DNA from: a virus
Taxonomy: Duplodnaviria > Heunggongvirae > Uroviricota > Caudoviricetes
Direction: 5' to 3' (one strand)
Virus record (IMG/VR): IMGVR_UViG_3300006033_000017
Length of the DNA: 64,000 nucleotides
Below the pieces are notes generated by a model that was given only the letters and a program-made list of their open reading frames with translations, made no database searches and was not told the origin of the DNA. Within the stretch, counting starts at the first letter, position 1, and each line of letters begins with the position of its first letter. This document shows, in pieces, positions 4,689 to 62,247 of this stretch. The position numbers and the translations under genes are program-made.

Positions 4689-4718
4689 ATTGTATCATAG
4701 GTGGCAGGCGGATGTCAA
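4689..4718 (-). promoter_or_regulatory. sigma70-like promoter (TTGACA-N18-TACAAT) inside a GTCAAGC motif
   Basis: minus-strand reading gcTTGACAtccgcctgccacctatgaTACAAT, ~25 nt upstream of the ATG of the 4129..4683 gene. Confidence 0.5.
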
Positions 4719-4733
4719 GCTATACAATTGGCG

Positions 4734-4997
4734 CTATTGATCCCTATCGGGTAAAGGTTGGAATGTAAATGATGTTTGCACGGTTACTTTCACAATCTGA
4801 AAATTACCTAGAGTTTCCTCATATTCTAGTTTCAAATCACGAAGCTGCTGAGGATCGTATACCTTGTATGCCTCATCAACATCTTCTACTAGTTCACCAC
4901 TACTAACATTTTCTCGACTCGCATATCCAACACAAACACAAGAATCGCTCAAAACGTAAAAACATTCACGCGGCATCTTCTGTCTCCTTAATCTCAT
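4734..4997 (-). CDS. hypothetical protein (87 aa)
   Basis: ORF. Confidence 0.35.
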   Translation of the reverse strand: MRLRRQKMPRECFYVLSDSCVCVGYASRENVSSGELVEDVDEAYKVYDPQQLRDLKLEYEETLGNFQIVKVTVQTSFTFQPLPDRDQ

Positions 4998-5346
4998 ACT
5001 CAGCTAGACTATCAATGAACTTACAAGCATCTTCTATTATTGGGCCATACTTAACTACCCCAGAAACTTTCGACATAGCAATAGACTCTAGGAAACCTAC
5101 ATGAGTTAAGTATTCATCTTTATTCATGGCGGGGGTCTTAAGGATTACTGTGAGTACGGCACCATTCTCATTCAGATCATGGGTAATGGCCTCAACAATA
5201 TGGCTTCTATCGCGAATGATGATGGTATTACCAACTTCAGGCATTACATGATCATTGTCGAGATCCACAAACCAGCTAAGTAAAAGGGGAATAGAGTAGC
5301 CATTAATACGTACCCGTCCCGTGATACGCACAATTCTATTGCTCAT
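4966..5346 (-). CDS. hypothetical protein (126 aa)
   Basis: ORF. Confidence 0.4.
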   Translation of the reverse strand: MSNRIVRITGRVRINGYSIPLLLSWFVDLDNDHVMPEVGNTIIIRDRSHIVEAITHDLNENGAVLTVILKTPAMNKDEYLTHVGFLESIAMSKVSGVVKYGPIIEDACKFIDSLAEYEIKETEDAA

Positions 5347-5690
5347 TATAGTGCCCTCAATTTGCTCGTTAGTGTCATAATAATGGTTATCATAACTTCT
5401 TCTAGCGAGAAGTTTGCATCAGGGTAGTCACTTTCGGCCCACTGCCAACCCGGCCCAAATGTTTCATTTCCCAGATTAAACTCCCAATAATATTCCCATA
5501 GAGGTGGACCATCCTTATGTAGAATACCAAGATAGGTGGAATTATAACTTGCAGTTTTCACTACGAGTACTAAGTCGTGCTTTTGGATTAGTGGGCTACA
5601 TACAGACCCCACAATAAGACTAGTAAGTTGATTGGCTAGGAATTCTCCTGGCCCAATGGCTGCCATACTCTGAATTTGTCCTACTGTCAT
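5346..5690 (-). CDS. hypothetical protein (114 aa)
   Basis: ORF; stop/start overlap with neighbours. Confidence 0.4.
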   Translation of the reverse strand: MTVGQIQSMAAIGPGEFLANQLTSLIVGSVCSPLIQKHDLVLVVKTASYNSTYLGILHKDGPPLWEYYWEFNLGNETFGPGWQWAESDYPDANFSLEEVMITIIMTLTSKLRAL

Positions 5691-6094
5691 TACAGTCCCC
5701 TAAACTCACTATTCTTGTAAACCGATTTACCATCCACAAAAATCTCTAGTTGTTTAACATCCATGAAATAATCATCATTCGTTATCGTACATACTTGACC
5801 AATGCTATACTTATCGAACTTAGCCTTAGTCACATAAATGCGTCTTTTACCTATAGACGAATACATGGCTCTCGCGACTAAAACATAGTCCTTATCATCC
5901 TTGTATTTCCAGACCTCAGGTTGTTTGGTTTTTGGATTGCGCCTACCCACAGTAAAGGCTTCGGGCGGCTCTACAACCTTAGAAATAACCCTCCAAGCAG
6001 TCGGATACGCCGCGCATCCACCTACTAGGTAGACGGGAATGAATAACAAGCCCGCAGCGGCGAGTAACAGGAGTAGTCGAGATAAGAACTTCAT
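5690..6094 (-). CDS. membrane-anchored hypothetical protein (N-terminal TM helix)
   Basis: N-terminus LLLLLAAAGLLFIPVYLVGG is hydrophobic. Confidence 0.45.
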   Translation of the reverse strand: MKFLSRLLLLLAAAGLLFIPVYLVGGCAAYPTAWRVISKVVEPPEAFTVGRRNPKTKQPEVWKYKDDKDYVLVARAMYSSIGKRRIYVTKAKFDKYSIGQVCTITNDDYFMDVKQLEIFVDGKSVYKNSEFRGL

Positions 6095-6774
6095 GCGAAA
6101 ATGTTATACCCTTTAGAGGCTTTTACAATCCTCCTATAATCAGGCATGTTGACTTTTTGCCCATAAACATAATAGTCCTTTGTGCATCTCCTAAAGAGAC
6201 CGAAGATGCCCTTAGAGTGATAGGTAATCACAGCGGGGCCATTCAGGCGGTGCAACTTGTCTTGGTAATACCACATTTCGACGTTGCCACGCTGATAAGC
6301 GGGGCCACGATCATAATCAAAATCACCATTAGGGGTATGGATTGTTTGGGTATGCCTCCCGGCGGGATCGATATCGGTTACCACATAGTGCTGAGTATCG
6401 AACATGATATAGCGAACATAGTACGGTTTCAAAGAGTTATAGCTGGAGTTGTGAACAATATGCCACCATTCAGGGTCTTGAGGCGTAATGAACTTTGAAA
6501 AGGTTGCCTTCCTAACTTTCATATGTCCATTAGGTGTGCCGTCCTTATGTACGCCCCAAGAAACAATATCCATGTCATCGACATGAAGCAAAACCAACAG
6601 TCTTCCACTAAGTGCAAGAATGGGATTGATCGCGAGCCGATCATAGATGTGTGCGTTAAGGTTAATCACCGAGAACGTATCTTCAAATGGCACAACCGGA
6701 CTATTAGGGTCGCATACGAACCTTTTGATGTCCACGCCGCCTAAGTTCTTGGTTACAAACTTTGCAACATACAT
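6091..6774 (-). CDS. hypothetical protein (227 aa) with a MORN-like variant repeat
   Basis: C-terminal HRLNGPAVITYHSKG...YYVYGQKV resembles phage MORN-type repeats. Confidence 0.4.
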   Translation of the reverse strand: MYVAKFVTKNLGGVDIKRFVCDPNSPVVPFEDTFSVINLNAHIYDRLAINPILALSGRLLVLLHVDDMDIVSWGVHKDGTPNGHMKVRKATFSKFITPQDPEWWHIVHNSSYNSLKPYYVRYIMFDTQHYVVTDIDPAGRHTQTIHTPNGDFDYDRGPAYQRGNVEMWYYQDKLHRLNGPAVITYHSKGIFGLFRRCTKDYYVYGQKVNMPDYRRIVKASKGYNIFA

Positions 6775-8409: not shown

Positions 8410-8730
8410 TTACTGCGCAATAATATCATTTACTCTTGTTAACGCCTCATGGACTTGAGTAATCAACAGTTTAGACACTTTGTGGGAGATTTGATCGTTT
8501 TCCCCAATGAAAGTTCTGCCACCCATAAGGGTGCCAATCAAGATAAAGAAATCAAAAGGCAGAGTCCTCTGAAGCAAAGGAGATTCTCTAACCAACATAT
8601 TGAGTGCGCAGAGTTTATCAAGTGCTTTTAAGGCAGTCTTGGCAGGTTCGTGTTCCGCTTCAAAAAGGAATTGATTGAGATCAAATATGTCTAGCATGGC
8701 GGGCTCTCCAATAGGGATTATAGCGCCCAA
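8410..8730 (-). CDS. hypothetical protein (106 aa)
   Basis: ORF. Confidence 0.35.
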   Translation of the reverse strand: MGAIIPIGEPAMLDIFDLNQFLFEAEHEPAKTALKALDKLCALNMLVRESPLLQRTLPFDFFILIGTLMGGRTFIGENDQISHKVSKLLITQVHEALTRVNDIIAQ

Positions 8731-8739
8731 GGGGCGGAC

Positions 8740-9159
8740 CTACAAGGGGCGTTCGTCAACATCTTGCCAAACCGGCAACACTGATGCACCGAAGGGAATT
8801 TGATACAAAGAGGTCAGGACACGGATATCTACAGCCACATTCCGCTCTCTTTTATCGGCATTGCGCAAACACGCTTCGGGATTGTTTTCGAAACAGATCC
8901 ACTCTACCTCAATGTTTGCTTCGCTAAATATCTTCTTGGCGTATTCTTGTGCGCCGGGCACACAAAGCTGCGGATCTGTGATAACACAAACCTGATGTTC
9001 CAAGAATTGGGGAATCAAACACTTAATATCAGGGTGATGTTTACTAACATCATCATACAGAGGAGCACCGCGAGAAGCGGCAAGACCCTTTGCGTAATGA
9101 GTCTTGCCGCTCCCCGGAAGTCCTACGACAAGGAAGACCTTAGCCATCTTTATTTCCAA
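8740..9159 (-). CDS. P-loop nucleotide/polynucleotide kinase-like protein
   Basis: Walker A VVGLPGSGKTHYAKGL near the N-terminus of a small (139 aa) protein. Confidence 0.5.
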   Translation of the reverse strand: MEIKMAKVFLVVGLPGSGKTHYAKGLAASRGAPLYDDVSKHHPDIKCLIPQFLEHQVCVITDPQLCVPGAQEYAKKIFSEANIEVEWICFENNPEACLRNADKRERNVAVDIRVLTSLYQIPFGASVLPVWQDVDERPL

Positions 9160-10477: not shown

Positions 10478-11498
10478 CTATTGGGTAAAGATTCAGGAAT
10501 CTCGAATTATAGTACCAATACACAAAATTATCTTCATATGTGGTCTTCTGTGACAATTTTCGGAAAGCAATCCGCTGCGCTTTATTCCTAAGTAGTTCTG
10601 CAAGATTTTCCGGCAAATCAACCGTACCGACTTGCATCACAAAACTCGAAGAAGACTTAAACTCGAAACCATGGATCCAATCAGAGTCGGATTCAGAGTC
10701 GGATTCGGAAACCTGCTCCATAAGAAGATTGAACCATTCCTCGGGCTTCTTGGCCTTCCAGTAATAGTCGGTAATCTCAAAGAACATAGCTAGCTTATTG
10801 TTCTCGACTCTTTTGTGATCTGTGTAAACGTACCCCCGAGTATAACCCTGATGGTGACCTTCTCGACTATATACGACATTATGGAAGTAGCCACAGAAGA
10901 TAAAGCGTTTACCAGCCTTTGTCTCATACACACCACCGGGCACGAGTTTACCCATGGCAATCTTGCTATAAGTGCCACGAGTAGTGGCTTGCATCAATCG
11001 CTTATGGAGTTCAGAGCCAGCGCGGATGATCTTCATCTGCGAACCAACTTTAGCCCATAGATACTCACCTTCAAGGATACCGCCGGGTGAAGTGCCGCAC
11101 ATACGCAAAGACTCTAGCAACACATCTTCACGCATGTCAAAGTAGTAACCGTCATCAGTCACGACTTTCCAGGCACGACCGCCTTCTGCGCGGTGTTCTA
11201 GGTTAATGACACGAAGGCCCTTAAAGGGGAGATTGTTGACAGTTACTTCTGTAACATCTCCCACCTTAATATATTCTCTCGTCGCGTAATCGTATACTCG
11301 ACCATCGCCTGCCCAATTTCGACCCGTTTCTAGGGTCTTAGCATTTGTTGCGTCGGAAACAAACGCGGGACGAACATGCCAAGTCATCTGTTCATCTTCG
11401 GGCTGATCGCTAATATCATCAAATCGCCACTTAACATCTTGTGCAGGTTTTGCAATGATGGTAATTTGCTGCGGGATATTTCCTGAGAAGTTCGCCAT
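10380..11498 (-). CDS. hypothetical protein (372 aa) with a SESDSESDSD low-complexity segment
   Basis: long ORF; 12-nt tandem repeat at 10680-10715. Confidence 0.5.
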   Translation of the reverse strand: MANFSGNIPQQITIIAKPAQDVKWRFDDISDQPEDEQMTWHVRPAFVSDATNAKTLETGRNWAGDGRVYDYATREYIKVGDVTEVTVNNLPFKGLRVINLEHRAEGGRAWKVVTDDGYYFDMREDVLLESLRMCGTSPGGILEGEYLWAKVGSQMKIIRAGSELHKRLMQATTRGTYSKIAMGKLVPGGVYETKAGKRFIFCGYFHNVVYSREGHHQGYTRGYVYTDHKRVENNKLAMFFEITDYYWKAKKPEEWFNLLMEQVSESDSESDSDWIHGFEFKSSSSFVMQVGTVDLPENLAELLRNKAQRIAFRKLSQKTTYEDNFVYWYYNSRFLNLYPIDEPIVENPYMAAIWANHTEEKELPDDLARLLP

Positions 11499-11767
11499 TA
11501 CTTCGCTCCTACCAATGCCTTTGCGACAGAATCGAATACCATTTTCTCGATCTTCTTAACCATAGTGCCGTAATAATCGACAACTTCATCATTACGCATA
11601 ATGAAGACATCAAATCGATAACCCGTTCCCGCATAACCATCGAACACCTGTTGAAGCAGCTTTTCATCCACTTCATAGTATTCATTAGTCCGAACAGATT
11701 GCATGTAGATTTTGTCCCCTACTTGGTAATTAGGAAGACGGCATTTCAATTGTCTACTTAGCATCAT
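11498..11767 (-). CDS. hypothetical protein (start at the MMLSRQ Met; upstream part of the ORF is promoter)
   Basis: the first 20 codons of the track ORF contain TTGACA-N17-TATCAT and an AAGGAG RBS before the ATGATG. Confidence 0.45.
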   Translation of the reverse strand: MMLSRQLKCRLPNYQVGDKIYMQSVRTNEYYEVDEKLLQQVFDGYAGTGYRFDVFIMRNDEVVDYYGTMVKKIEKMVFDSVAKALVGAK

Positions 11768-11792
11768 GGTCTCCTTGCCATCATCCTTTATG

Positions 11793-11827
11793 ATAGCACA
11801 CTCGGAGTGCCATGTCAAGCTTGACAT
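11793..11827 (-). promoter_or_regulatory. divergent promoter region built around the 16-bp perfect palindrome ATGTCAAGCTTGACAT
   Basis: palindrome at 11812..11827 gives TTGACA on both strands; minus-strand -10 TATCAT lies 17 nt downstream. Confidence 0.45.
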
Positions 11828-11936
11828 CGAACAAGCAATATGCTACGCTGAATATAGGTCCAACTAAAATATTGAGGCCAATTCTAGCTTGTAGAGTCGG
11901 CGCGGGGGCGCTATAACGATCCTAAAGGACCACGCC

Positions 11937-12686
11937 ATGCTACCTCGTTACCAGTCACCGAACTACCGCCTAATACACGGTGATTGCCATGACACGCTCA
12001 ATGATTTGAAGGGGTTGGAAGCTCGCCTTGTCCTTACTGACCCCCCATATGGTAAGGTCCTCAAAGATGACTGGGATCAAAGCGGACATATTACCGATCA
12101 ATGGTGTAAGCAAATCAAAGCAGCCTGTACACCTGATGCATCTATATATGTTTGGTGTGGCATGGGGGAGAAATCTCGTTCATTAGTTGAATTTATCCAG
12201 GTGCTCGATAAACATTTTACATTCAAAGATCTAATTACTTGGCAAAAACGACGCGGCATTGGTATGCGTCGAGGATGGCTATATACTCGCGAAGAATTGC
12301 TTTGGTATGTTGTAAACCCTAAAGACTTCGTGTGGAACAAAGAAGCCCAATACTCTGATGAGCCCAACGCATTCAAAAAGGGTATGAGTGGTACGCAAGT
12401 TAATGAGAAGAAGCGTATCACGAATGTTTGGACTGATGTTCCTGAGCAACTAAAGAAGCCTCTTGGTACTCACCCTGCCGATAAACCGATACAAGCACTA
12501 AAACGAGTCATTGCAGCGCACACTGATCCGGGCGATCTCATTCTAGACCCATTCTGTGGGGGCGGCTCTACACTTATTGCTGCTATGCAAATGGGTCGAA
12601 TGGGGTTTGGTATTGAAAAAGATGACCATTGGGCCGAATACACAAAGACTAGGCTAGAGGCAGAATGGGAAAAATCGAATGATTAA
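11937..12686 (+). CDS. DNA amino-methyltransferase (N6-adenine or N4-cytosine, beta class)
   Basis: DPPY catalytic motif near the N-terminus and LILDPFCGGGST (AdoMet motif I) near the C-terminus. Confidence 0.8.
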   Translation: MLPRYQSPNYRLIHGDCHDTLNDLKGLEARLVLTDPPYGKVLKDDWDQSGHITDQWCKQIKAACTPDASIYVWCGMGEKSRSLVEFIQVLDKHFTFKDLITWQKRRGIGMRRGWLYTREELLWYVVNPKDFVWNKEAQYSDEPNAFKKGMSGTQVNEKKRITNVWTDVPEQLKKPLGTHPADKPIQALKRVIAAHTDPGDLILDPFCGGGSTLIAAMQMGRMGFGIEKDDHWAEYTKTRLEAEWEKSND

Positions 12687-13695
12687 TTGCCATACTCACA
12701 CCTTCAGCATTAACAATGTCCCAGATGATTTTCTCCCCCTCAAACTCAGCAAGTTGAGCAGGAACCCTTTACTCCGAAAAGTCATCATCCGACTTCTCCA
12801 AATGAATGACCCCTTAACTGCGCGCGATATCGCTGAACGTTTAGCAACGTTCATAACGCTAATGAATCAAGAATCACAAGCTGATATCTTTGATAATCTT
12901 GCCAGTAACTACCCCAAGGGTACTAAGTTTGTAGTGCTCCCGATGGATTTTGAATTCTCGGGCTATCATCCTCCACATACATCTACTGAAACCCAACTTG
13001 GCATACTGAAGTCGCTTGCCGAAACTCGCCCCATTATCCCATTCTGCCCTGTCGATCCCCGCCGCCCAGACATCATGGGTTTTGTAAAGAAATGGATCGA
13101 AGATAAAGGGTTCGCGGGATTGAAGCTATATCCCGCTCTTGGCTATGAAGTCAATGATTCCCGTCTTGATCCTGTATATGAATATGCCTGCGAGAACAAG
13201 ACACCTATCATTACTCATTGTGGAGGTACCTCAGTTAGAGGAAAACATACCTCAGAAGCTGACGCATACGCCAAGAGCTTACCATATAAATACATTTCGG
13301 TATTAGCAAGGTATAATGAGCTTCATCTATGTTTCGCTCATTACGGTGGAGTAAAAGCTTGGCAAGCAAAGTTGGGTTTAATCGACTCCTGTGAAGATTC
13401 CTGGGTTGATTCAATCTCTAACCTTATGAAACAACACCCTAATGTTTATGCAGATATTGCCTACACTATCTTTACACACCCGTCATTCTATAATTACCTC
13501 AAAGTCTTGATGACAGATGCGACACTAAGCAAAAAGATTCTGTTTGGAACAGACTTCCCACTAGCCAATCTAGAAGAGCGAACGGAGAAACAAGTATCGA
13601 TTGATCTCCGCGCGGTACTTGGCGAGGATTCATGGAATATGATTAGCGAGTTAAATCCAAGACAATTCCTTGGTGTGAAAAACACCTGCGTTTAA
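12679..13695 (+). CDS. metal-dependent amidohydrolase (amidohydrolase-2 / TIM-barrel hydrolase family)
   Basis: N-terminal INCHTHTF (HxH metal ligands) and C-terminal LFGTDFPL (family signature); ATGA overlap with the methyltransferase stop. Confidence 0.5.
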   Translation: MINCHTHTFSINNVPDDFLPLKLSKLSRNPLLRKVIIRLLQMNDPLTARDIAERLATFITLMNQESQADIFDNLASNYPKGTKFVVLPMDFEFSGYHPPHTSTETQLGILKSLAETRPIIPFCPVDPRRPDIMGFVKKWIEDKGFAGLKLYPALGYEVNDSRLDPVYEYACENKTPIITHCGGTSVRGKHTSEADAYAKSLPYKYISVLARYNELHLCFAHYGGVKAWQAKLGLIDSCEDSWVDSISNLMKQHPNVYADIAYTIFTHPSFYNYLKVLMTDATLSKKILFGTDFPLANLEERTEKQVSIDLRAVLGEDSWNMISELNPRQFLGVKNTCV

Positions 13696-13705
13696 GGATA
13701 AGACA

Positions 13706-14062
13706 ATGAAAAACGTAGAATACTATCTTGTTCATGATGGTCGCTTTTTAAGCGAGTACAAGAATTCACTAGATGATTCTCCGGTCGCGGGTGTATTGGT
13801 AGTAGATGGTAAAGTAGCTATCAATACCTCTTATCAGGAGAATTTCTCAGAGCAAGCATCTGCGTACCTCAAAGCCCTTACAGATAATGACATAGAATAC
13901 CGATTAACTCGTAAGCGAGTTGCAATCAATTCTAAGTATCATGGTTGGAAGGCTCAGGACGGAAATATGTATCAGCACATTCATTGGATGGTTACTCCAA
14001 TCGATTCCGAATATCCACCAAAGACCCATGGTGACGTGTTGCCGTATGTCATAAATGGCTAA
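13706..14062 (+). CDS. hypothetical protein (118 aa)
   Basis: ORF. Confidence 0.4.
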   Translation: MKNVEYYLVHDGRFLSEYKNSLDDSPVAGVLVVDGKVAINTSYQENFSEQASAYLKALTDNDIEYRLTRKRVAINSKYHGWKAQDGNMYQHIHWMVTPIDSEYPPKTHGDVLPYVING

Positions 14063-14354
14063 GGAGACTTCAATGTGTCAACATCGTGAAACACTCGTAC
14101 TTTCACCGGAAGATGCTAGATGCGCCATCTTCGGCGATTATCCCGATATGGATGTTGTACTTAATGAGATAATTGATCAAGGTCGTTGGTCAACGTATCA
14201 CCGCGTAGTAGTTAAATACATGGATAAATTCTATTCGGTCAAATATTCACAAGGGAGTACTGAGTCCCAAGAGGAAGCCCCCTTTGAATACGATACTGAG
14301 GTTAAGTTCGATCAAGTCTTCCCTGTCGAGAAGACCATCATAGTTTACCAATAG
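14055..14354 (+). CDS. hypothetical protein (99 aa)
   Basis: ORF with AAGGAG RBS. Confidence 0.4.
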   Translation: MAKETSMCQHRETLVLSPEDARCAIFGDYPDMDVVLNEIIDQGRWSTYHRVVVKYMDKFYSVKYSQGSTESQEEAPFEYDTEVKFDQVFPVEKTIIVYQ

Positions 14355-14365
14355 AGGAGAGATAT

Positions 14366-15145
14366 ATGTTTCCACTAGATGAAGAGCTTATGGAGACGTG
14401 CGCAGATCTTTGCGACGAATTAGAGGAAGATGGAAGTCCGTTCGCTACCGACTTTAGGGAATTACTGGATGCGATCTGGTTGACTGAAGAGTTTGGTCAT
14501 CAGTATAGAAATGGTGAACTAGATATAAACCACCCATTACGCGATGGCGAATATAGGGCAACACAACTGGCGTGTTTCAATGCTTGTGCAAAGGAATGTG
14601 ACGAGTTGGATGAGTGGGGCGCTGACGAGATGGAGCAGTTATGCGAAATTCTCGGTATAGCTTATCGTGCCATTGAGAGTATCTTCCCCACTAAGAAGCC
14701 CGAGCCAATTGTAGAACCTGTAGTAGAAACCCCTGTTCCCGTAGCAACCCCAGAACCGCCACCTATTCCCAAAGAACCCCTCAAAGTAGTCATTACCCCT
14801 GAGTCTAAACTTGCTAGATATACTGTTTATGGCTATGAGGATGAAGACGGTGAAGATGGTGAGGGCAACGAAGAAATCTATGCTAGGTGTATTGGTGGTG
14901 ACGGTTCTATCGATGTTCTTACAGTTGATGGTGTAATTGCATTAATCGGTGACTACTATCATAACAAGATTGAGGCTCAGATAGAAGGCTATCTTCAAGC
15001 ATTAGAAGATTTGTGGGGATATGAACCTAAAGTGGAATGCTATGATGTGGTAGATGGCATCTATGGTTCAACAACTTGGGGCTACCCAGATAAATCCGAG
15101 CTATATCCGCCCGCCATCAAGCCACTCTACATAAAGGCACTCTAA
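14366..15145 (+). CDS. hypothetical acidic protein with a Pro-rich linker
   Basis: GAGG RBS; PEPIVEPVVETPVPVATPEPPPIP linker. Confidence 0.45.
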   Translation: MFPLDEELMETCADLCDELEEDGSPFATDFRELLDAIWLTEEFGHQYRNGELDINHPLRDGEYRATQLACFNACAKECDELDEWGADEMEQLCEILGIAYRAIESIFPTKKPEPIVEPVVETPVPVATPEPPPIPKEPLKVVITPESKLARYTVYGYEDEDGEDGEGNEEIYARCIGGDGSIDVLTVDGVIALIGDYYHNKIEAQIEGYLQALEDLWGYEPKVECYDVVDGIYGSTTWGYPDKSELYPPAIKPLYIKAL

Positions 15146-15501
15146 TGACTAAACTCCCTACATATAAAGTATACACCGTATATCTTCACGACAGCAACAA
15201 CAAGATTACCGCCCATGAAGCGCTAAATCATGAATTCGCAGCAAAGATCATTACGGTAAATGGCACCATTGAAGTATGTAATAATGAATTAGATCGAGGT
15301 CGATATGATCTTGAAGATACCTTCTTCAAGGGTGTCGAAAGTGTTATTAGAGACAAGTTTACATATGAACGTATTGACCTAATTATTCACCATGACAAAG
15401 TTGAGGAATGGTTGGAGTTTGACATTGGGGAGCTTTTCCCACCCCGAAGACGACCGCTACTAACATTAAAGGAAATCGTAGAATGCCAATATATCAGATA
15501 G
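15145..15501 (+). CDS. hypothetical protein (118 aa)
   Basis: ORF. Confidence 0.4.
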   Translation: MTKLPTYKVYTVYLHDSNNKITAHEALNHEFAAKIITVNGTIEVCNNELDRGRYDLEDTFFKGVESVIRDKFTYERIDLIIHHDKVEEWLEFDIGELFPPRRRPLLTLKEIVECQYIR

Positions 15502-15668
15502 AATGCCGTAGCTGCAAACACCAGTGGGAGATCCGGCTCAAGTACAAAGAAGATTTACCACCCTGTCCCGAGTGTAACCACAAAGAGGTCAGAAAGGTAA
15601 TGACACCTCCTGCCCTTTGCTTCAAAGGCTCGGGATGGCACGTTACAGACTATGGAAAGAGTCGATAA
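15483..15668 (+). CDS. FmdB-family zinc-ribbon protein
   Basis: MPIYQIECRSCKHQWE...CPECN...FKGSGWHVTDY matches the FmdB putative regulatory zinc ribbon. Confidence 0.65.
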   Translation: MPIYQIECRSCKHQWEIRLKYKEDLPPCPECNHKEVRKVMTPPALCFKGSGWHVTDYGKSR

Positions 15669-16222
15669 GGAAGTGTAAGTTGGCAAACACCTTGGTTGTG
15701 AACTTGTTTGGCGGGCCGGGCGTTGCAAAATCCACAACGGCTGCGGGCTTGTTCTATCACTTGAAAACACAAGGAATATCCTGTGAACTCATCACAGAGT
15801 ATGCCAAAGATAGAACATGGCTAAAAGACTACGAAACATTAGCATGTCAACCATACGTTACAGCTAAACAGCTATGGCGTATGGAACGGGTCGTGGGTCA
15901 GGTAGATGTAATGATCACCGACTCGCCGTTGTTGTTTGGCATCATCTATGCGGGCAAATGGGGGTCTGAAAACTTCGATGCCATAGTCAATGAGTGGTTT
16001 GATAGATTCAACAACCTTAACTTCCTGCTCACACGGGATTTGGATTACCATCCCTATAGACAAGCCGGTAGAACTCAAACCGTAGATGAAGCGATTGTTG
16101 TAGATGGGAAGATAGAAGCACTCCTTAATGATTTCTCGATCTCACATGAACGCATCAAATGTGGTAAAGGCTCTACTGAGAAGATCCTGCAAACTGTACT
16201 AGAACGACTAAGGACAGCCTAA
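15635..16222 (+). CDS. P-loop kinase (uridine/nicotinamide-riboside kinase-like, AAA_28-like)
   Basis: Walker A LFGGPGVAKSTTA; Walker B-like VMITDSPLLF; Arg-rich lid LTRDLDYHPYRQAGR. Confidence 0.45.
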   Translation: MARYRLWKESIRKCKLANTLVVNLFGGPGVAKSTTAAGLFYHLKTQGISCELITEYAKDRTWLKDYETLACQPYVTAKQLWRMERVVGQVDVMITDSPLLFGIIYAGKWGSENFDAIVNEWFDRFNNLNFLLTRDLDYHPYRQAGRTQTVDEAIVVDGKIEALLNDFSISHERIKCGKGSTEKILQTVLERLRTA

Positions 16223-16893
16223 TGTGCCCTGTATGTGGTGAGACGAAAAACATATTCCCCCTTGATACTCCAGCGTGGTACGAATGCCGCGACTGCAATA
16301 GCACTTTTGGTTCTCCTGCAAGGATGCATTGCAATCAAACCTGCATCGCTTGTGGTAGTGATGATGTATCCACAGTGGATGGGAAAAACTATTGTCGCTC
16401 TTGTTCAAGTATCTACAATCTCCCCTCTGCCCCTATAGAGTTCCTTGACAATCCATTCCGTAAACTACTAAATGATATAGAGAATTGGCGGAACGAAGGC
16501 TGTTCAGCTAAAGAGATTCGCAAAAAGGTAGAAGAAACAAAGTGGCGCACAGGTAAAAGGTTCTTTGACGAAAAGACCATTAATGCCGCCATTAAAGTAA
16601 TTGACAACTATAGGCTGAGAACCGCTAAAGCGGCAAAGAGTAAAGCCAAAGACCCCGATAAACAAGAAATTGTAAAAGCCAAAGACCCCGATAAACAAGA
16701 AATTGTAAAAGCCAAAGAAAAAGGGGCCGAGCTAAGACTTGTCGCGAAGGCAATTGAAGTAGCAGTAATCGAAGAAGATGAGCTAGAACAGATTACAAGA
16801 GAGAACGATATCCGAGAGGCGCTAATTGAACTAGAAGAGATGTTAAAGCCATCTATTATACAGCGTGCCAGGAATATCTTGAGAAGAAGATAG
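16222..16893 (+). CDS. zinc-ribbon protein with tandem AKDPDKQEIVK repeats and an acidic coiled-coil tail
   Basis: N-terminal CPVCG...CRDC...CIACG...CRSC; 33-bp perfect tandem duplication at 16642..16707. Confidence 0.5.
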   Translation: MCPVCGETKNIFPLDTPAWYECRDCNSTFGSPARMHCNQTCIACGSDDVSTVDGKNYCRSCSSIYNLPSAPIEFLDNPFRKLLNDIENWRNEGCSAKEIRKKVEETKWRTGKRFFDEKTINAAIKVIDNYRLRTAKAAKSKAKDPDKQEIVKAKDPDKQEIVKAKEKGAELRLVAKAIEVAVIEEDELEQITRENDIREALIELEEMLKPSIIQRARNILRRR

Positions 16894-16907
16894 TCAAGAG
16901 GTGAAAG

Positions 16908-17650: not shown

Positions 17651-17651
17651 T

Positions 17652-18131: not shown

Positions 18132-18137
18132 ACTACT

Positions 18138-18637: not shown

Positions 18638-18642
18638 CCGTA

Positions 18643-19213: not shown

Positions 19214-19216
19214 ATT

Positions 19217-23741: not shown

Positions 23742-24551
23742 TTATCCATGACACAGATTCCACAAACCAAGTTCGCGTGCGCGCCGCAAAGCTACAGCAG
23801 CGATATCGATTTGATTAATGTAGATATATTCAGCCGTTTCGTTGGCGGTCACAACAACGATTCGAGCTTCTTCCTTGTCCAACCAAAGATCAGTGTGCCT
23901 CTCATCTTGATTGTATGTTCCCAACCAATCATATTGTCGCGTAGTAGTTAGATCGTACTGAGGAACACACCCCCCAAACGTACCATAAACTGCCCTAAGG
24001 TTACGTGCTTCTCCATTAGTAAGAGTCTGAGATCGATACATAATCTCCCCATTACATTCAAGAGAATACCAAGCATCACCAAATAGGTCTGTGGCTCGAC
24101 GAATAGCCGCATCAAAAGTAACAATTGGAGCACCATACTCATCACAAAGAAGGTGACCGAAAATGTTGCCATTCCTATAGGCTCGGACCTGTTCCCGAAC
24201 CGACTTCGGGGTCGAGGACATATTAACCTCAAAAGCCTGCTCACTCAGTTGTCGTTGAACACTCTGCTCTCGAAGTTGAGTCATACTCGCAAACAGTTTC
24301 TTTCCGCATTCTTTTAGGCTTTCACCCCTAACTCGGATTGTATTCATTTGGACAATATACGCAGGAGGATAAGCACCACCATGGTCGATTTGAGGCTCAC
24401 AAGTAACCTGCAACTCCACCTTCAATTCTTGTTCATTAACCTTCTTAGTACCAGTACAAAGGGCCACGTTTTGTTGCATCCAATCAACAGTCCAGTCCCA
24501 ATCAGGCTTAAGTTCGCGGATCCACTTAGTGACGGTCTTCAATCGCAACAT
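23742..24551 (-). CDS. hypothetical protein (~269 aa from the MLRLK Met)
   Basis: the track ORF starts with TTG inside a promoter; GGTGGAG RBS precedes the first ATG. Confidence 0.45.
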   Translation of the reverse strand: MLRLKTVTKWIRELKPDWDWTVDWMQQNVALCTGTKKVNEQELKVELQVTCEPQIDHGGAYPPAYIVQMNTIRVRGESLKECGKKLFASMTQLREQSVQRQLSEQAFEVNMSSTPKSVREQVRAYRNGNIFGHLLCDEYGAPIVTFDAAIRRATDLFGDAWYSLECNGEIMYRSQTLTNGEARNLRAVYGTFGGCVPQYDLTTTRQYDWLGTYNQDERHTDLWLDKEEARIVVVTANETAEYIYINQIDIAAVALRRARELGLWNLCHG

Positions 24552-24573
24552 AGTCAATTCTCCACCTGTCTCT

Positions 24574-24602
24574 ATTGTACCACGTCGTGACGCAGGTGTC
24601 AA
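24574..24602 (-). promoter_or_regulatory. sigma70-like promoter TTGACA-N17-TACAAT
   Basis: minus-strand gcTTGACAcctgcgtcacgacgtggTACAAT. Confidence 0.55.
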
Positions 24603-26473: not shown

Positions 26474-26568
26474 TTGTCTCTGCTCTCCAACCTAATGATA
26501 GCAGGAACCGTGTCGCAAGTCAAGCCCATTCCAGTTGGCGATATAATGAAATACGAAGGGAGCATATA

Positions 26569-28491: not shown

Positions 28492-28521
28492 ATCATAGCA
28501 TACTGAAGCTGCTGGCGTCAA
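28492..28521 (-). promoter_or_regulatory. sigma70-like promoter TTGACG-N18-TgcTATGAT for the Thg1-like gene
   Basis: minus-strand read of the region. Confidence 0.5.
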
Positions 28522-28534: not shown

Positions 28535-28563
28535 TTGTAGTTCCCGACCGGGGATGCTATACT
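28535..28563 (+). promoter_or_regulatory. sigma70-like promoter TTGTAG-N17-TgcTATACT
   Basis: upstream of the 28582 gene; extended -10. Confidence 0.45.
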
Positions 28564-29034: not shown

Positions 29035-29044
29035 GGAGCAGGAC

Positions 29045-30147: not shown

Positions 30148-30178
30148 ATTTAACAATAACGCAAGAAAAGTACCTCAT

Positions 30179-37406: not shown

Positions 37407-37435
37407 ATGGTACCACGCGCGCAGGCGCGTGTCAA
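37407..37435 (-). promoter_or_regulatory. sigma70-like promoter TTGACA-N17-TACCAT followed by AAGGGTAG
   Basis: minus-strand read. Confidence 0.5.
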
Positions 37436-38742: not shown

Positions 38743-38753
38743 TTTGACCTTTA

Positions 38754-39350
38754 TTGAGAGTAATGATTGACCTCGCTGCCCTTACAACGATAAACCATCA
38801 GACTAACCCCATTATAGCACGACCGCAGCCGTTTGTTAAATCGCTTGACAACCCAATCACCCCATGGTATAATGATGATATGAAACCCATAAATCCAGTA
38901 TATGCGGCTCGTTTCGATGAAGCCAAATACTTACTAGAAAAACATCACGACCTATTTAGCGCTATTGTCTCTATTTCTGATAGAGAAGATGAGTTAATGC
39001 CACAAGCATTAACCCAAGACACCTATTGTCTGCGTCTAATCTTCACTGATACTGATGGTCGTCAACCTGACATAGCTATGTCTCTAGAACAAGCACAAGC
39101 TCTATATGATGCACTACCGACTATCACACAAGGAACAGGCACAATCCTGGTTCATTGCTCCGCAGGCTTGTGTCGCTCACCTGCGATTGCATATGTGATT
39201 ATGGCGTACCAATTCGGCCCCGGCAATGAAGCTCAAGCATACGCAGAGCTTTCTAAATTGAATCCTGTGATGCTACCTAACCAATGGGTGCTTAGTCAGT
39301 GCGAGAAGGTGATGCCGGGTTTTAAGTTACTACCAATTCTTAACAAATAA
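38754..39350 (+). CDS. Cys-based protein phosphatase (tyrosine/dual-specificity type)
   Basis: HCSAGLCRS = CX5R(S/T) P-loop. Confidence 0.6.
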   Translation: MRVMIDLAALTTINHQTNPIIARPQPFVKSLDNPITPWYNDDMKPINPVYAARFDEAKYLLEKHHDLFSAIVSISDREDELMPQALTQDTYCLRLIFTDTDGRQPDIAMSLEQAQALYDALPTITQGTGTILVHCSAGLCRSPAIAYVIMAYQFGPGNEAQAYAELSKLNPVMLPNQWVLSQCEKVMPGFKLLPILNK

Positions 39351-46493: not shown

Positions 46494-46504
46494 TCTCTAC
46501 TAGG

Positions 46505-46533
46505 ATTATAGCACACCGGACGCGAATCGTCAA
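46505..46533 (-). promoter_or_regulatory. sigma70-like promoter TTGACG-N17-TgcTATAAT
   Basis: minus-strand read upstream of the metallophosphoesterase gene. Confidence 0.5.
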
Positions 46534-48364: not shown

Positions 48365-48403
48365 TACTTATTATAGCGCCTTGCTCACGTTTCAACAAGG
48401 TGA

Positions 48404-49898: not shown

Positions 49899-49945
49899 TC
49901 TATACAATACAAGCACGGCGATCTACCTCTCGTAGATCGCCGTGC
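49899..49945 (-). terminator. rho-independent terminator (minus strand)
   Basis: GCACGGCGATCTAC-gagag-GTAGATCGCCGTGC perfect 14-bp stem, followed on the minus strand by TTGTATTGTAT. Confidence 0.6.
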
Positions 49946-49962
49946 TCTGCGATGAGTGCTTA

Positions 49963-50538: not shown

Positions 50539-51222
50539 CTAAATCGCCCAGGAGGGGGCTTGTTCCCCATCCATGACCACAGCGAGCTTACACTCATACA
50601 GGGTAATCTTAGGCTCATCCTTCTTAGGCGCACCGCGAGACACGAGATGATCCTTAACAACAGTCCAACCACCCTCGGGGTGATTAAGCCACTTAGATAC
50701 ATAGGCCATGACACTCATGTCGCTATGAATACCAGTGTATACGGCTACTTCTTCCTGAAGACCAGCAAGAGTAATGCCAGGATTTGCGGCAAGAATACCG
50801 AAAACCATATCCTGCTTAGTGCCCTCATTGAAGCCCGAACCAAAAGCAATAGGATAACCAGCAAAGACCAAGCGCTTCTTGTGCTTTTCGGCTTCCTTTT
50901 CCTTAGGAACGTCTACACTGATTACTTCAATGGTGGCATCCTCAGTAACCGGCAGTTCTTCCTTAACAGGTCGAGCAGGTAGCCCCTGAGCAATACGCCG
51001 CGCTTCAATGGCGCGGGTTACATGCTCAATATGAGCAATACTACCCTCACAGGCGTAGCTACAGTAACCATCAATGAGAACGCCAAAATGATTACCCTTG
51101 GGCTTCTCAAGACAGAAACGACAGAATCCACCCGATTGCCAATTTGTAGTCTTCGCTTCAATAGCAGAAACGGGCACCCATTCGATGATCTTACCAGTTG
51201 GCTCATGAATAAAGGTCGGCAT
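50539..51222 (-). CDS. hypothetical protein (~227 aa from MPTFIHEP)
   Basis: the track ORF's first 17 codons are the promoter TTGACA...TATAAT read from a TTG; Cys/His-rich segment. Confidence 0.45.
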   Translation of the reverse strand: MPTFIHEPTGKIIEWVPVSAIEAKTTNWQSGGFCRFCLEKPKGNHFGVLIDGYCSYACEGSIAHIEHVTRAIEARRIAQGLPARPVKEELPVTEDATIEVISVDVPKEKEAEKHKKRLVFAGYPIAFGSGFNEGTKQDMVFGILAANPGITLAGLQEEVAVYTGIHSDMSVMAYVSKWLNHPEGGWTVVKDHLVSRGAPKKDEPKITLYECKLAVVMDGEQAPSWAI

Positions 51223-51244
51223 GGTTTGGTCCCTCACTACCCTT

Positions 51245-51273
51245 ATTATAGCACGTCGTGAGCCGCTTGTCAA
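51245..51273 (-). promoter_or_regulatory. sigma70-like promoter TTGACA-N17-TgcTATAAT + AAGGGTAG
   Basis: minus-strand cgagTTGACAagcggctcacgacgtgcTATAATaagggtag. Confidence 0.55.
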
Positions 51274-57154: not shown

Positions 57155-57185
57155 TCCAATTGTCCTTCCTGGTTTTTCTCAACTA

Positions 57186-57341
57186 AACGAGAGGGGAGAT
57201 TCGAACTCCCACCGGCGAATGGGCATTCGCCTTTTGCTGTTAATTACGTAGGGGCTTAGCTCAGCATTAGCCCTTCACAGCATTATTCTTCCTTGTATTT
57301 GCAACTACTCGGAAGAAGCTCTATCCAATAAGCTACTCTCG
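57186..57341 (-). tRNA. atypical tRNA-like gene, 156 nt between perfectly complementary acceptor strands (type II-like arm; discriminator U)
   Basis: 5' ACGAGAG-UA-GCUU-AUUGGAUA-GAGC (acceptor, U8, D-arm) and 3' GGGAG-UUCGAAU-CUCCC-CUCUCGU (T-arm, acceptor); GGCGAAUgcccAUUCGCC hairpin in the variable position; no canonical anticodon arm found. Confidence 0.45.
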
Positions 57342-57399
57342 TCCTTTTGAAAGAGCGGGCTCCAATAGTGAGCCTTCTATCTTTCAAACTTGCTCTAGA

Positions 57400-57698
57400 T
57401 GCCCCTGTCTGGAGTTGAACCAGCGTCACCCGGTTATGCTTACCACTATAGTTTTCACTACCAAACAAGTTGTTTGTGGTCTGGACTCTCTCTTCACCAT
57501 AGATTATTATCTTTAGGTGTTCCGTGTTGAGTCTCTACACCTTGCAACTTTCGTTGCCTTGGCTCGGGATTGCCATTTCACAGGGTTCCCCGAATTTACG
57601 GAATAATCACAGCAATAGTTTCCTATTGCCGCGCCCTCTTTTGTGCTTCTAAAGCACGTTAGCGAAGCCGGACGCTCTAACCATTGAGCTACAGGGGC
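57400..57698 (-). tRNA. tRNA with anticodon CAU (Met or Ile-lysidine type) interrupted by a 227-nt group I intron in the anticodon loop
   Basis: 5' exon GCCCCUG-UA-GCUC-AAUGGUUA-GAGC-G-UCCGG-CU (57666..57698) and 3' exon CAUAA-CCGGG-UGAC-GCUGG-UUCAACU-CCAGA-CAGGGGC-A (57400..57438); all stems pair; intron ends in G. Confidence 0.7.
57439..57665 (-). ncRNA. group I self-splicing intron (IC3-like, Azoarcus / cyanobacterial tRNA-intron type)
   Basis: AAAUUCGGGGAACCCUG ... GGCAAUCCCGAGCCAAGG ... GGUGUAGAGACUCAACACGGAACACCUAAAG ... CUAUGG ... GAGAGUCC closely match the conserved P3-P8 core of the Azoarcus tRNA-Ile and Anabaena tRNA-Leu introns. Confidence 0.65.
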
Positions 57699-57777: not shown

Positions 57778-57806
57778 ATTATAGCATGGCGGGCCGCGCA
57801 TGTCAA
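57778..57806 (-). promoter_or_regulatory. sigma70-like promoter TTGACA-N17-TgcTATAAT + AAGGGTATG driving the tRNA cluster
   Basis: minus-strand gcTTGACAtgcgcggcccgccatgcTATAATaagggta; leader hairpin GGGAAGG-n9-CCTTCCC at 57741..57763. Confidence 0.55.
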
Positions 57807-58703: not shown

Positions 58704-58749
58704 AATTCGTCTCCACTTTATAGATCATATCACAAGTGGAGGCGGCGAG

Positions 58750-59193
58750 TCAAGCCTCAGATTCCGGTATCGCCAATTCACATAATTCTTTATGCTGCTT
58801 ACGGGTCATTTTGTGGGTAAGCGCAAACTCACACCAAACCTGCATAGCTGAAATCAGATTTGGTGTTGGATTTGCCACGAAACGCCTCATAAGCTCTTTC
58901 CTATCAGGGGTTTCGATCATTTCGTGAACATCTCGGGGCTCGAAATCTAGACGAAGACTCCCACCATCATAGGGATCAAATGTCCCATATGCAGGCTCAC
59001 AATACTTATAGGACTTATGGAACTTAGCGGGGCCTCGATAGTTACTGTAATCGATCCAGTACCATTTGCCCTTTTCTAGTGTTACACCTTTATGATTAGT
59101 CATTATACTATCTTTCTTGTTTAGTACAATACCACTTACCGTCGGAAGCAGCATATGCACCGGGCTCCATACCACCTTCGGCTCGAAATTCAC
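58750..59193 (-). CDS. hypothetical protein (147 aa)
   Basis: ORF. Confidence 0.4.
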   Translation of the reverse strand: MNFEPKVVWSPVHMLLPTVSGIVLNKKDSIMTNHKGVTLEKGKWYWIDYSNYRGPAKFHKSYKYCEPAYGTFDPYDGGSLRLDFEPRDVHEMIETPDRKELMRRFVANPTPNLISAMQVWCEFALTHKMTRKQHKELCELAIPESEA

Positions 59194-60503: not shown

Positions 60504-60745
60504 CCTACCTCAAGTAGAGCCATTTGATCTTTTACGCGAGAAGCCCAATCATTTTCCAAAGCTGCAATTACCTGTTCAGGCTTACCACCCAATACCTCCT
60601 TACATCCTCGGGCTCTCCCTCGCCAACCACCACTCTGATATACTAAGCCATCAATTTCGTTGCAAGAATAGTAATAGTTATGCCAATCGTCTTCTTCGCT
60701 ATTGTCGCCCTCCCGCCAAAGGAAGCGTCCCTGGATATCAGCCAT
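60491..60745 (-). CDS. hypothetical protein (84 aa)
   Basis: ORF. Confidence 0.3.
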   Translation of the reverse strand: MADIQGRFLWREGDNSEEDDWHNYYYSCNEIDGLVYQSGGWRGRARGCKEVLGGKPEQVIAALENDWASRVKDQMALLEVGWVS

Positions 60746-61076
60746 TTTGTAATACCTCTAACTCATTCTGTAACCTGCGAACCTTCGCAATGAGTTCGGG
60801 CATAGCTACTTTAGCGGTAGCGATGAATTCTGCATTGCGACGACGACGTTCATTACTAGCTCGAACTATAGTTTCGTCATTGAGTTCATGAAGATCTTCG
60901 GGATGACAAATATAGTGAGGAGCAACGCCGAGATGATCCCAGAATTCTGCTAGTCTAGATTCGTCAGCCCTGCTTTGGACGCAAACAGTGCCTGACTGAT
61001 AAATCTCTACCACCCAGGGACCGGGTGTTGTGTCATTGCAAATAGTCTCTAGTTCTTCTAGTCGTTTAGCTTCCAT
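60738..61076 (-). CDS. hypothetical protein, 'TPGPW...PELI..RRLQ' family (paralog A)
   Basis: LEELETICNDTTPGPW ... AMPELIAKVRRLQ. Confidence 0.4.
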   Translation of the reverse strand: MEAKRLEELETICNDTTPGPWVVEIYQSGTVCVQSRADESRLAEFWDHLGVAPHYICHPEDLHELNDETIVRASNERRRRNAEFIATAKVAMPELIAKVRRLQNELEVLQNG

Positions 61077-61461
61077 GTAACAACTTATCCGTTTCTACAA
61101 TCATAGCTTGCCCAAGATAGAGCTTCTGAAGACGACGTATCTCTTTGATTAGCTCAGGGACAGCAGTTCTGGCTGCCGAGATGAATTTAGCATCGTTCTC
61201 GGCTTGGAGTGTCGCCGCTCCTTGTTGTTGCTCGAATCTCTCCCACTCATCGTCATCATAAGAAGTTAGATAATCAGCATTGTTGAAGCTTGGACCAATA
61301 GAAGCGACACACATTGAATCGCCTAATTCGCCCCAGCCAACTGTAGCAGGCGCACCGCCTTCACCCCATCTATCAAGAACCCAAGGATCAGGTGTAGCCT
61401 TATTGCATAACTCTTCTAGTTCAGCTAATCTATCAGCTAATATCATAGCTTCTCCAATCAA
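61066..61461 (-). CDS. hypothetical protein, same family (paralog B)
   Basis: LAELEELCNKATPDPW ... AVPELIKEIRRLQ. Confidence 0.4.
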   Translation of the reverse strand: MIGEAMILADRLAELEELCNKATPDPWVLDRWGEGGAPATVGWGELGDSMCVASIGPSFNNADYLTSYDDDEWERFEQQQGAATLQAENDAKFISAARTAVPELIKEIRRLQKLYLGQAMIVETDKLLHGS

Positions 61462-61880
61462 GGATATATGATAATGTCCCTAACGATGTCTTGTTCGTCT
61501 AGCATTATGGTGGCGGCATTATAACGCCCATCGCACCAATGCCCCTGCATAGGTTTGTAGATCCTAATATTGGTGACACCGATACCTCCTACCAATACGC
61601 CCCACAACGCCGTCGATAATGGCTTACCTAAGTGTTCTTTTGCGCTAAAACTCATGCAACCGCGTACTGTCAACTTAATTCGCTCATGATTATTGCCCAT
61701 GAACCGTTCCCACTGAGGATTAGCTATGGTTGTCTCGTATTCCTCAAAAGCCAAACGAGTTTCTTCGGGCATACCTTCCTTGCCACCATAAATCGCCCAA
61801 CCTAACTTGAGATCTTTAGGGTCGTCAGCAGGTAGTGTAGTCGTAGTGATTTCCATTATGGTTTCTCGAATCTTTCCCAT
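61458..61880 (-). CDS. hypothetical protein (140 aa)
   Basis: ORF. Confidence 0.4.
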   Translation of the reverse strand: MGKIRETIMEITTTTLPADDPKDLKLGWAIYGGKEGMPEETRLAFEEYETTIANPQWERFMGNNHERIKLTVRGCMSFSAKEHLGKPLSTALWGVLVGGIGVTNIRIYKPMQGHWCDGRYNAATIMLDEQDIVRDIIIYP

Positions 61881-62050
61881 TGCGGATAGCCAAAATCGCG
61901 GGGCTCAGTTACGGCCCGCTCCTCGAAACAGACGCCACAAATTCCTTGATGAAAAGTGCATACTAGTCTAGAAAAAGTACGGCCTTCTTTTTCTAATTGA
62001 TCTGTAGCGCATTCAATACAGCACCAGATAGGATATGGTCGGAGTTCCAT
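61856..62050 (-). CDS. zinc-finger small protein (64 aa)
   Basis: CCIEC...CGVCF; TTGAGG-N17-TgcTATAAT upstream. Confidence 0.35.
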   Translation of the reverse strand: MELRPYPIWCCIECATDQLEKEGRTFSRLVCTFHQGICGVCFEERAVTEPRDFGYPQWERFEKP

Positions 62051-62247
62051 TAGGAAGAGCCTCTAAGGGGATTATAGCACCTGTCGCCCATACCCTCAAG
62101 CCGCCTACGCTCACCATAGGGGATAGAAATCTTCAAGGGAGTAGTCACTGCCACCAATCCCCGATACATCGGTGAATTCCTCTCCAATATCGTGTCATGG
62201 CTCGATATAAACTCATTCCAGTATTGTTGCGCTTGTTGATCAGGCAT
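62050..62247 (-). CDS. hypothetical protein (65 aa)
   Basis: ORF. Confidence 0.3.
   Translation of the reverse strand: MPDQQAQQYWNEFISSHDTILERNSPMYRGLVAVTTPLKISIPYGERRRLEGMGDRCYNPLRGSS

Follow-up and report, generated by a model that had tools for sequence, protein, structure and literature searches.

What reads the promoter-like sequences that recur through the genome of a large phage, and are they coordinated by a regulator of the phage's own? We addressed this question in a 64,000-nucleotide stretch of phage DNA (IMG/VR record IMGVR_UViG_3300006033_000017; hereafter the window, always meaning the whole stretch), which is the reverse complement of positions 1-64000 of the 157,149-bp metagenome contig ena:ERZ27247451:k141_1195142. 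With the next 10 kb included, 74 kb of this 157-kb contig were inspected, and we take the DNA to come from a large phage, about 157 kb in size, that has not been cultivated. An earlier note on this DNA had described a family of near-identical strong promoters with an extended -10 element, and had proposed that a shared GTCAAGC core and a 16-bp palindrome mark the binding site of a phage-specific regulator. We observed that the family is real and sharply delimited. Its members are very probably promoters for a housekeeping RNA polymerase holoenzyme of the sigma-70/sigma-A type, most likely that of the host, as judged from their elements and spacing.

The strict pattern TTGACD-N14-TGSTAYVAT was found 8 times in the window against 0.00 expected, and a relaxed expression (TTGA[CG]N, N13-15, TGN, TANNNT) 15 times against 1.14 expected, with a maximum of 4 in shuffled sequences. 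We then scanned the window with a position weight matrix (PWM) covering the -35 element plus three upstream bases and the -10 element plus its flanks, using ten Markov-simulated sequences as the null. Fourteen main-class sites scored 23.8-36.9 bits; the next independent match scored 12.7 and the null maximum was 16.5. All other matches above 12.7 were 1-bp register shifts of those same sites, and the plus-strand site at 11821 was found though it was absent from the training set. The score distribution is cleanly bimodal, and the family is discrete and far beyond chance. Weak promoter-like matches, on the other hand, were not enriched in generic scans (37, 41, 32 and 12 found vs 40.8, 41.0, 40.1 and 13.3 expected), and the window contains a single copy of the T4 late-promoter motif TATAAATA.

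A main-class site begins with (G)C-TTGACA and a G+C-rich spacer of 17-18 bp, which are followed by YR-TGn-TAYNAT, by N5-TAG and finally by a ribosome site, GAGG. Twelve of the 14 sites contain TTGAC, the remaining two having TTAACA and TTGAGG, and the -10 element reads TAnnnT in all of them. The spacer is 17 bp long in 11 sites and 18 bp in three (4689, 28492 and 58724). TG stands at -15/-14 in 14/14 sites, but it belonged to the search pattern. The mean pairwise identity of the 41-nt cassettes is 55%, and that of the spacers is 33% against 28% expected from composition. Hence the description 'near-identical' was overstated: the main-class sites share functional elements, not copied sequence.

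Other parts of the earlier description also needed revision (Table 1). At least 11 sites had been given the form TTGAC(A/G/T)-N14-TG(c/g)TA(T/C)(A/C/G)AT; the family stands, but only 8 sites fit the form exactly, since 4689, 28492 and 58724 have the 18-bp spacer and 62071 has TTGAGG. The sites placed at 11793, 26480 and 62075 start at 11790, 26495 and 62071, and those at 38811(-), 38845(+) and 58724(-) had been missed. The 48370 site has neither TTGAC nor TG and belongs to a weaker sub-class, TTGT(A/T)G-17-TATAAY. Not every site serves the minus strand, as had been thought, because two main-class and two sub-class sites lie on the plus strand. The sequence AAGGGTA, said often to follow the -10 element, does so exactly after 3/14 main sites. 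The note was right that the open reading frames (ORFs) 50539..51273 and 23742..24602 begin at the TTG of TTGACA, and these are mis-called starts.

Table 1. Promoter sites and associated features of the window (promoter positions run from the first base of the -35 element to the last base of the -10 element; distance is from the -10 element to the start codon; SD, sister phage)
Class	Position	Strand	-35	Spacer (bp)	-10 (and following bases)	Distance (nt)	Bits	Remarks
Main	4689..4718	-	gcTTGACA	18	TGATACAAT	20	27.8	ATG at 4668; heads gene 4129-4668 (start confirmed by L034 gene call)
Sub-class	8717..8745	-	ccTTGTAG	17	CGCTATAAT	19		ATG start
Main	11790..11818	-	gcTTGACA	17	TGCTATCAT	22	32.8	ATG start; gene 11498-11767
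Palindrome, 16 bp	11812..11827				ATGTCAAGCTTGACAT			Two divergent -35 hexamers sharing upstream GC
Main-like	11821..11849	+	gcTTGACA	17	TGCTACGCT		23.8	Poor -10; upstream member of tandem pair serving DNA-methylase operon
Sub-class	11889..11917	+	gcTTGTAG	17	CGCTATAAC	19		ATG 11937; heads plus-strand block 11937-19365
Main	24574..24602	-	gcTTGACA	17	TGGTACAAT	22	32.2	ATG start; TTG mis-read as start of ORF 23742..24602
Main	26495..26523	-	gcTTGACT	17	TGCTATCAT	21	30.2	ATG start
Main	28492..28521	-	gcTTGACG	18	TGCTATGAT	20		ATG start; Thg1-like gene; conserved in SD (L036, L037)
Sub-class	28535..28563	+	ccTTGTAG	17	TGCTATACT	18		ATG 28582; heads plus-strand block 28582-34196; hexamers conserved in SD (L036, L037)
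Main	37407..37435	-	ccTTGACA	17	TGGTACCAT-AAGGGTAG	21	33.1	ATG start; 429-aa gene; conserved in SD (L030, L031)
Main	38811..38839	-	TTAACA	17	TGCTATAAT		28.7	Kept in SD despite replaced downstream gene
Main	38845..38873	+	gcTTGACA	17	TGGTATAAT	7	31.2	ATG begins 7 nt after -10
Main	46505..46533	-	ggTTGACG	17	TGCTATAAT	11	29.8	First ATG
Sub-class	48370..48398	-	ccTTGTTG	17	CGCTATAAT	17		ATG start
Main	51245..51273	-	TTGACA	17	TGCTATAAT-AAGGGTAG	22	36.2	ATG start
Main	57778..57806	-	gcTTGACA	17	TGCTATAAT-AAGGGTAT		36.9	Best score; heads two interrupted tRNA(-like) genes
Interrupted tRNA(-like) genes	57185..57698	-						Predicted transcribed target of the 57778-57806 promoter
Main	58724..58753	-	gcTTGACT	18	TGATATGAT	20	24.4	GTG start
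Main	62071..62099	-	gcTTGAGG	17	TGCTATAAT	20	26.8	ATG start

The placement of the sites is as distinctive as their sequence. According to a curated ORF map, the window has a coding fraction of 0.92 and about 125 ORFs, mostly small, and only 7.6% of it is intergenic. All 18 sites, main class and sub-class together, lie in this intergenic part, and each is co-oriented with, and faces, the adjacent start codon; for the 14 main sites the chance of intergenic placement is about 1e-16 by simple multiplication. The distance from the -10 element to the start codon is usually 18-22 nt across the 18 sites; for nine of the 14 main ones it is 20-22 nt, an interval that also holds a GAGG-type Shine-Dalgarno sequence. 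Several gaps between genes, 39-65 nt long, contain hardly anything besides the cassette, and six gaps of 39-56 nt are made up essentially of it alone. At two sites the upstream gene ends on the TGA within the -35 hexamer (51270-51272 in TTGACA and 58750-58752 in TTGACT), and the gene end and the next promoter thus overlap. Two main sites lie closer to the start codon. The mRNA from 38845-38882 (+) is predicted to be leaderless, with the ATG exactly 7 nt after TATAAT, an arrangement conserved in the sister phage locus L030 (see below); a near-leaderless mRNA is predicted at 46490-46533 (-), where 11 nt separate the -10 element from the first ATG, which has no Shine-Dalgarno sequence.

We next examined the columns that lay outside the search pattern. 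GC occupies -37/-36 in 10/14 main sites (p = 1e-10), and positions -16 and -17 hold a purine and a pyrimidine, respectively, in 13/14 each (p = 9e-4 each), position -17 being T in 6/14 only. This pair resembles the TRTG '-16 region' element reported as common in Firmicutes (PMC12641261). Among the 14 main sites no conserved columns were seen beyond -38. Downstream, the sixth, seventh and eighth bases after the -10 element are T, A and G in 10, 11 and 12 of the 14 sites, respectively (p = 9e-4 to 7e-7). This T-A-G would let transcription start at A(+1) behind a pyrimidine(-1) at the canonical distance of 7 nt, in keeping with the known start-site position 7 bp downstream of the -10 element (PMC12641261).

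The smaller sub-class has the form (c)cTTGT(A/T)G-17-(C/T)GC-TATAAY, with four sites against 0.06 expected for a pattern that was defined post hoc: 8717-8745(-), 11889-11917(+), 28535-28563(+) and 48370-48398(-). The TG of the extended -10 element is present in one of the four. The exact TTGTAG hexamer occurs three times, is kept in the sister phage and heads both of the long plus-strand gene blocks. The TTGTAG-type sites are probably weaker variants of the main-class cassette.

The sister phage is a strain present on short contigs (ERZ27247350, the municipal-landfill metagenome JGI 3300014204 and a metagenome-assembled genome (MAG) of Candidatus Omnitrophota), and in tblastn searches its proteins, encoded at loci L030/L031 and L036/L037, were 56-100% identical to those of the window. 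Five orthologous sites, with -35 starts at 37435, 38839, 38845, 28521 and 28535, keep the -35, TGn and -10 elements there. The substitutions fall in the spacers or are compatible with the consensus (TTAACA to TTGACA, TACCAT to TATCAT, TTGACA to TTGACT); in the 38811-38839 site 5/14 spacer bases are identical. A mosaic junction was seen at this site: on comparing 38240-38810 with L030 950-1500, the homology to the sister ends directly after the -10 element, and the gene that follows encodes 152 aa in L030 as against a 166-aa metalloprotease-like ORF in the window. Two more full-signature sites were found in the 10 kb beyond the window (L034 14518+ and 18522+, L034 being the contig beyond window position 1).

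The same architecture also extends to more distant phages. In a distant relative, L032 (33% G+C, on a 160-kb contig), TTGACA-N14-TGnTAnnAT lies upstream of an orthologous 402-aa gene. A scan of IMG/VR for TTGACA-N14-TGSTAYMAT-AAGGGTA returned 23 loci that share no protein with the window, and unrelated phage contigs (L002, L005, L006, L010, L018 and L019) carry 10-23 TTGACA-N14-TGnTATAAT sites per 10 kb. As the architecture is present in phages without shared proteins, it reflects polymerase recognition rather than shared ancestry or a lineage-specific repeat.

In L032 (3801-18690, +) an inverted repeat surrounds the -35 element of the promoters with this architecture (e.g. aactacTTGACAagtagtt and agctacTTGACAaatagct), and GTAGYT recurs after the -10 element; these repeats look more like an operator than anything in the window does. 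In the unrelated IMG/VR contigs many sites are preceded by 'aaaacctc', and several opposite-strand copies run straight into G+C-rich hairpins instead of a Shine-Dalgarno sequence and ATG. Such hairpin-linked copies may point to small RNAs.

Two matches, 30227(+) and 11111(-), were left out of the family as they lie within ORFs and score below 12 bits. The former (30227-30255, +; TTGACC-17-TGCTACGAT) lies 27 nt into ORF 30200-30766, which has a signal-peptide-like N-terminus, and is a possible internal promoter; it is kept in the sister phage, where its -35 element, TTGACA, is closer to the consensus.

Discreteness, intergenic placement, orientation, the fixed distance to the Shine-Dalgarno sequence and start codon, the start-site context and conservation in the sister phage all bear out the proposal of a strong sigma-70-type family with an extended -10 element, in so far as sequence can do so. 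The likely mode of action is as follows. The -35 element, (G)C-TTGACA, would be contacted by sigma region 4, the extended -10 or 'TRTG-like' -16 element, Y-R-T-G-n, by region 3, and the -10 element, TAYNAT, by region 2. Five bases and then T-A-G would place a purine start 7 nt past the -10 element, and the GAGG Shine-Dalgarno sequence would be followed by the start codon, usually 20-22 nt past the -10 element. Since the -35, TGn and -10 elements all match the consensus, the sites should compete well for polymerase immediately after infection, and they are probably early promoters. Each site would head a unit of 1 to about 15 small genes, mostly without assigned function, one unit holding the interrupted tRNAs. 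Generic terminator scans revealed no terminators systematically paired with the family and no intrinsic terminators between co-oriented units; transcription therefore probably runs on from one unit into the next and accumulates. Of the terminator-like structures in the window, the strongest is a hairpin with a 16-bp perfect stem in a co-oriented intergenic gap at 49911-49947 (-), whose T tract is weak.

Several points weigh against the reading of the sites as early promoters for the host enzyme. The main-class spacers are 67% G+C compared to 44% for the genome (p = 9e-11). No A/T-rich UP element is present, the 30 nt upstream of the -35 element being 50% G+C. Both features are atypical of classic strong phage promoters, of which T4 early promoters and PeSLs, with their A/T-rich upstream DNA, are examples. 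The early timing is drawn from gene content only, and a phage sigma factor or polymerase may be encoded elsewhere on the 157-kb contig, outside the 74 kb inspected.

Early promoters that match the consensus and recur throughout regions rich in ORFans are textbook knowledge for T4, T5, SPO1 and related phages. The early promoters of T4 have an 'uber' organization of UP, -35, TGn and -10 elements with extra consensus positions (Hinton 2010, PMC2988021). The likeness lies in the many near-consensus -35/TGn/-10 copies before small, non-essential early genes and in the extra conserved positions past the three core elements; by analogy, the copies are presumed to out-compete host promoters for the sigma-70 holoenzyme. 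However, T4 has the A/T-rich UP element, whereas this family has none and shows a G+C-rich spacer and GC before the -35 element, and the phage shares almost nothing with T4 except a Phage_30_3 domain just outside the window. In the PeSL cassettes of T4-type phages (RB49/phi1, PST and nt-1), sigma-70 early promoters and stem-loops lie between ORFans and mediate shuffling (PMC2839356, PMC4122927). As in those phages, repeated sigma-70-type cassettes, each with a Shine-Dalgarno sequence and a start codon at its end, occupy the spaces between ORFans in plastic regions, the stop codon of the gene before may directly adjoin the cassette, and one mosaic junction lies at a cassette. The present cassettes lack the defining stem-loop/terminator and the A/T-rich upstream region. 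PeSLs are conserved over roughly 100 bp, which provides homology for recombination, and they bound the indels seen between relatives; the present cassettes are 55% identical. By analogy, therefore, the family works like the T4 early and PeSL systems, yet it fails their defining extras, the UP element and the stem-loop.

Bacillus phages, SPO1 and phi29 among them, have early promoters that belong to the Gram-positive sigma-A group with an extended -10 element. The Gram-positive '-16 region' TRTG promoters resemble the family in having Y-R-T-G-n upstream of TATAAT, a 17-bp spacer, a start 7 nt past the -10 element and strong GGAGG-type ribosome sites (PMC12641261). They differ in the -17 position, which is T in a minority of the sites here. 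Back-to-back divergent promoter pairs are a general bacterial and phage arrangement, and those of the window, at 11790-11849 and 38811-38873, have opposite-strand -35 hexamers 2-6 bp apart and divergent genes; no regulator site was identified between or over them.

The proposal that GTCAAGC and the palindrome form the binding site of a phage-specific repressor or activator, which would overlap the -35 element and switch the whole family together, has some features on its side: the GC at -37/-36 is well beyond chance, the window holds one perfect 16-bp palindrome and a small MerR/HTH_17 ORF (35845-36018), and the spacer is G+C-rich. However, the conservation past the -35 element amounts to two bases only. 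GTCAAGC is not enriched (10 copies vs 7.6 expected in the window) and is merely the reverse complement of GC+TTGAC; 9/10 copies lie at family sites in the same fixed register and the sole copy outside promoters is at 53482, so it does not stand as an independent regulator core. The palindrome does lie at 11812-11827 with -35 hexamers on both strands, as described, but it exists because two divergent promoters abut and share the GC, and it lends no support to an operator role. There is no dyad at the ten unpaired sites among the 14 main ones. The gaps between the divergent -35 hexamers are 2 bp (11790/11821), 5 bp (38811/38845) and 6 bp (the sister orthologue of the latter), which is incompatible with a fixed dimer site. 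The spacers are unlike one another and drift freely between relatives, which leaves no sequence-specific operator in the spacer. The HTH ORF adjoins a TnpB-like gene, and the two stay together in the relative; the ORF is therefore more likely part of the TnpB element. We give a family-wide regulator of this kind very little credence.

Recognition by a phage-encoded sigma factor or a phage-modified polymerase, with TTGACA and TTGTAG as two temporal classes, would account for the features that exceed a generic consensus (the GC at -37/-36, the G+C-rich spacer and AAGGGTAG) and for the recurrence of TTGTAG, its retention in the relative and its position before both plus-strand blocks. Against this, the elements and the distances between them agree exactly with the universal housekeeping consensus, unrelated phages have the same architecture, and no sigma-factor or RNA-polymerase domain is present among the 25 listed of the 32 Pfam families matched by 124 window ORFs; moreover, there are only four TTGTAG sites, in a pattern defined after seeing them. 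This explanation appears very improbable. The more general suggestion that the GC, the 67% G+C spacer without UP element, AAGGGTAG and the TTGTAG variant set apart two classes of promoter, between which a phage-modified or phage-encoded factor would discriminate, is doubtful too, though slightly less so; if true, it would mean a temporal switch not yet described, in an uncultivated lineage whose host is perhaps an Omnitrophota-like bacterium. It is unlikely, though a little easier to entertain, that the cassettes also serve as PeSL-like mobile regulatory cassettes, with the repeats as homology patches for recombination that shuffles small genes. The region is dense in small ORFs of no assigned function, and the sister homology breaks directly after the -10 element of 38811-38839, where another gene follows. 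But the sites have no stem-loop: folding of the 60 nt upstream does not exceed that of the genome background (p = 0.72), no excess over composition-matched spacer shuffles is seen for the -35 to -10 region (mean z = -0.18, p = 0.49), and a clear hairpin is present at one site only (37407-37435). The 55% identity, with longest shared runs of about 15-20 nt, offers little homology for recombination, and the mosaic junction is a single one; from it, the cassettes may have a minor role in recombination.

Promoters of the housekeeping type thus remain our reading. The family is a real, well-delimited set of such promoters in a novel phage, and it represents an ordinary, well-known phage strategy with no new regulatory principle. 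Its use is practical: it gives a transcription-unit map for a 157-kb uncultivated phage without a close relative in INPHARED, it corrects gene calls that wrongly begin at the TTG of TTGACA, and its compact promoter-plus-ribosome-binding-site cassettes of about 55 nt are candidates for synthetic parts.

The unit below the 57778-57806 promoter had been described as a tRNA cluster. The tRNA target was borne out but the cluster was not, as the unit comprises one split tRNA-Met plus one tRNA-like RNA. Default ARAGORN found no tRNA in the window; with introns allowed, it called two interrupted tRNA(-like) genes downstream of this promoter. In the tRNA-Met(CAT) (57400-57698, -) a group I intron of 227 nt, the sole Rfam match (RF00028, 60.2 bits, 57463-57662), interrupts the anticodon loop after position 33. 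As G1 pairs with C72 and the three G-C pairs of the initiator are missing from the anticodon stem, the molecule looks like an elongator Met or Ile2-type tRNA. The second RNA (57185-57343, -) was called by ARAGORN -i as tRNA-Leu(TAA) with a 67-nt insert; its anticodon stem has 3/5 pairs, while the acceptor, D, T and long variable arms are good. Its minimum free energy fold has an extended anticodon-like arm and an extra arm (-59 kcal/mol, z = -4.3). The 67-nt insert is too short for a group I intron.

No near-DNA match was found for 20 kb of the window among 50,697 phage records, no related loci for the 429-aa protein in IMG/VR, and none for a 292-aa protein in JGI metagenomes. The Pfam search matched 32 families, few ORFs having recognizable domains; these include a DNA methylase, a Thg1-like enzyme, an Amidase_2 lysin, dCMP deaminase, phosphoesterases and a Gp80 fibre domain, as well as a TnpB-like gene adjoining the small MerR/HTH_17 ORF. 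Beyond window position 1 (L034 10589-14230) lie a Metallophos gene, a T4 gp30.3-family gene (PF08010; Phage_30_3) and an 854-aa ORF, whose protein gave no match in tblastn against phage records.

The promoter family itself narrows the range of hosts to bacteria in which sigma-70/sigma-A recognition is canonical and which use an extended -10 element and strong ribosome sites of the GGAGG type. Thg1 is not decisive in this respect, its closest homologues coming from jumbo phages of many hosts. A 3.7-kb sister-phage fragment (L036; GCA_041663665.1, JBAYMG010000074.1), with a Thg1 gene 99% identical, is filed in a Candidatus Omnitrophota MAG, and this is either a hint to the host or a binning error. 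The TnpB-like ORF, which has a Cas12f1-like TNB domain, has its nearest genomic relative in an Anaerolineae MAG (38% identity, not decisive for the host). It is preceded by the MerR/HTH_17 ORF of 58 aa; the two together span 34646-36018 (-), and both are conserved at 100% in the contigs of the sister phage.

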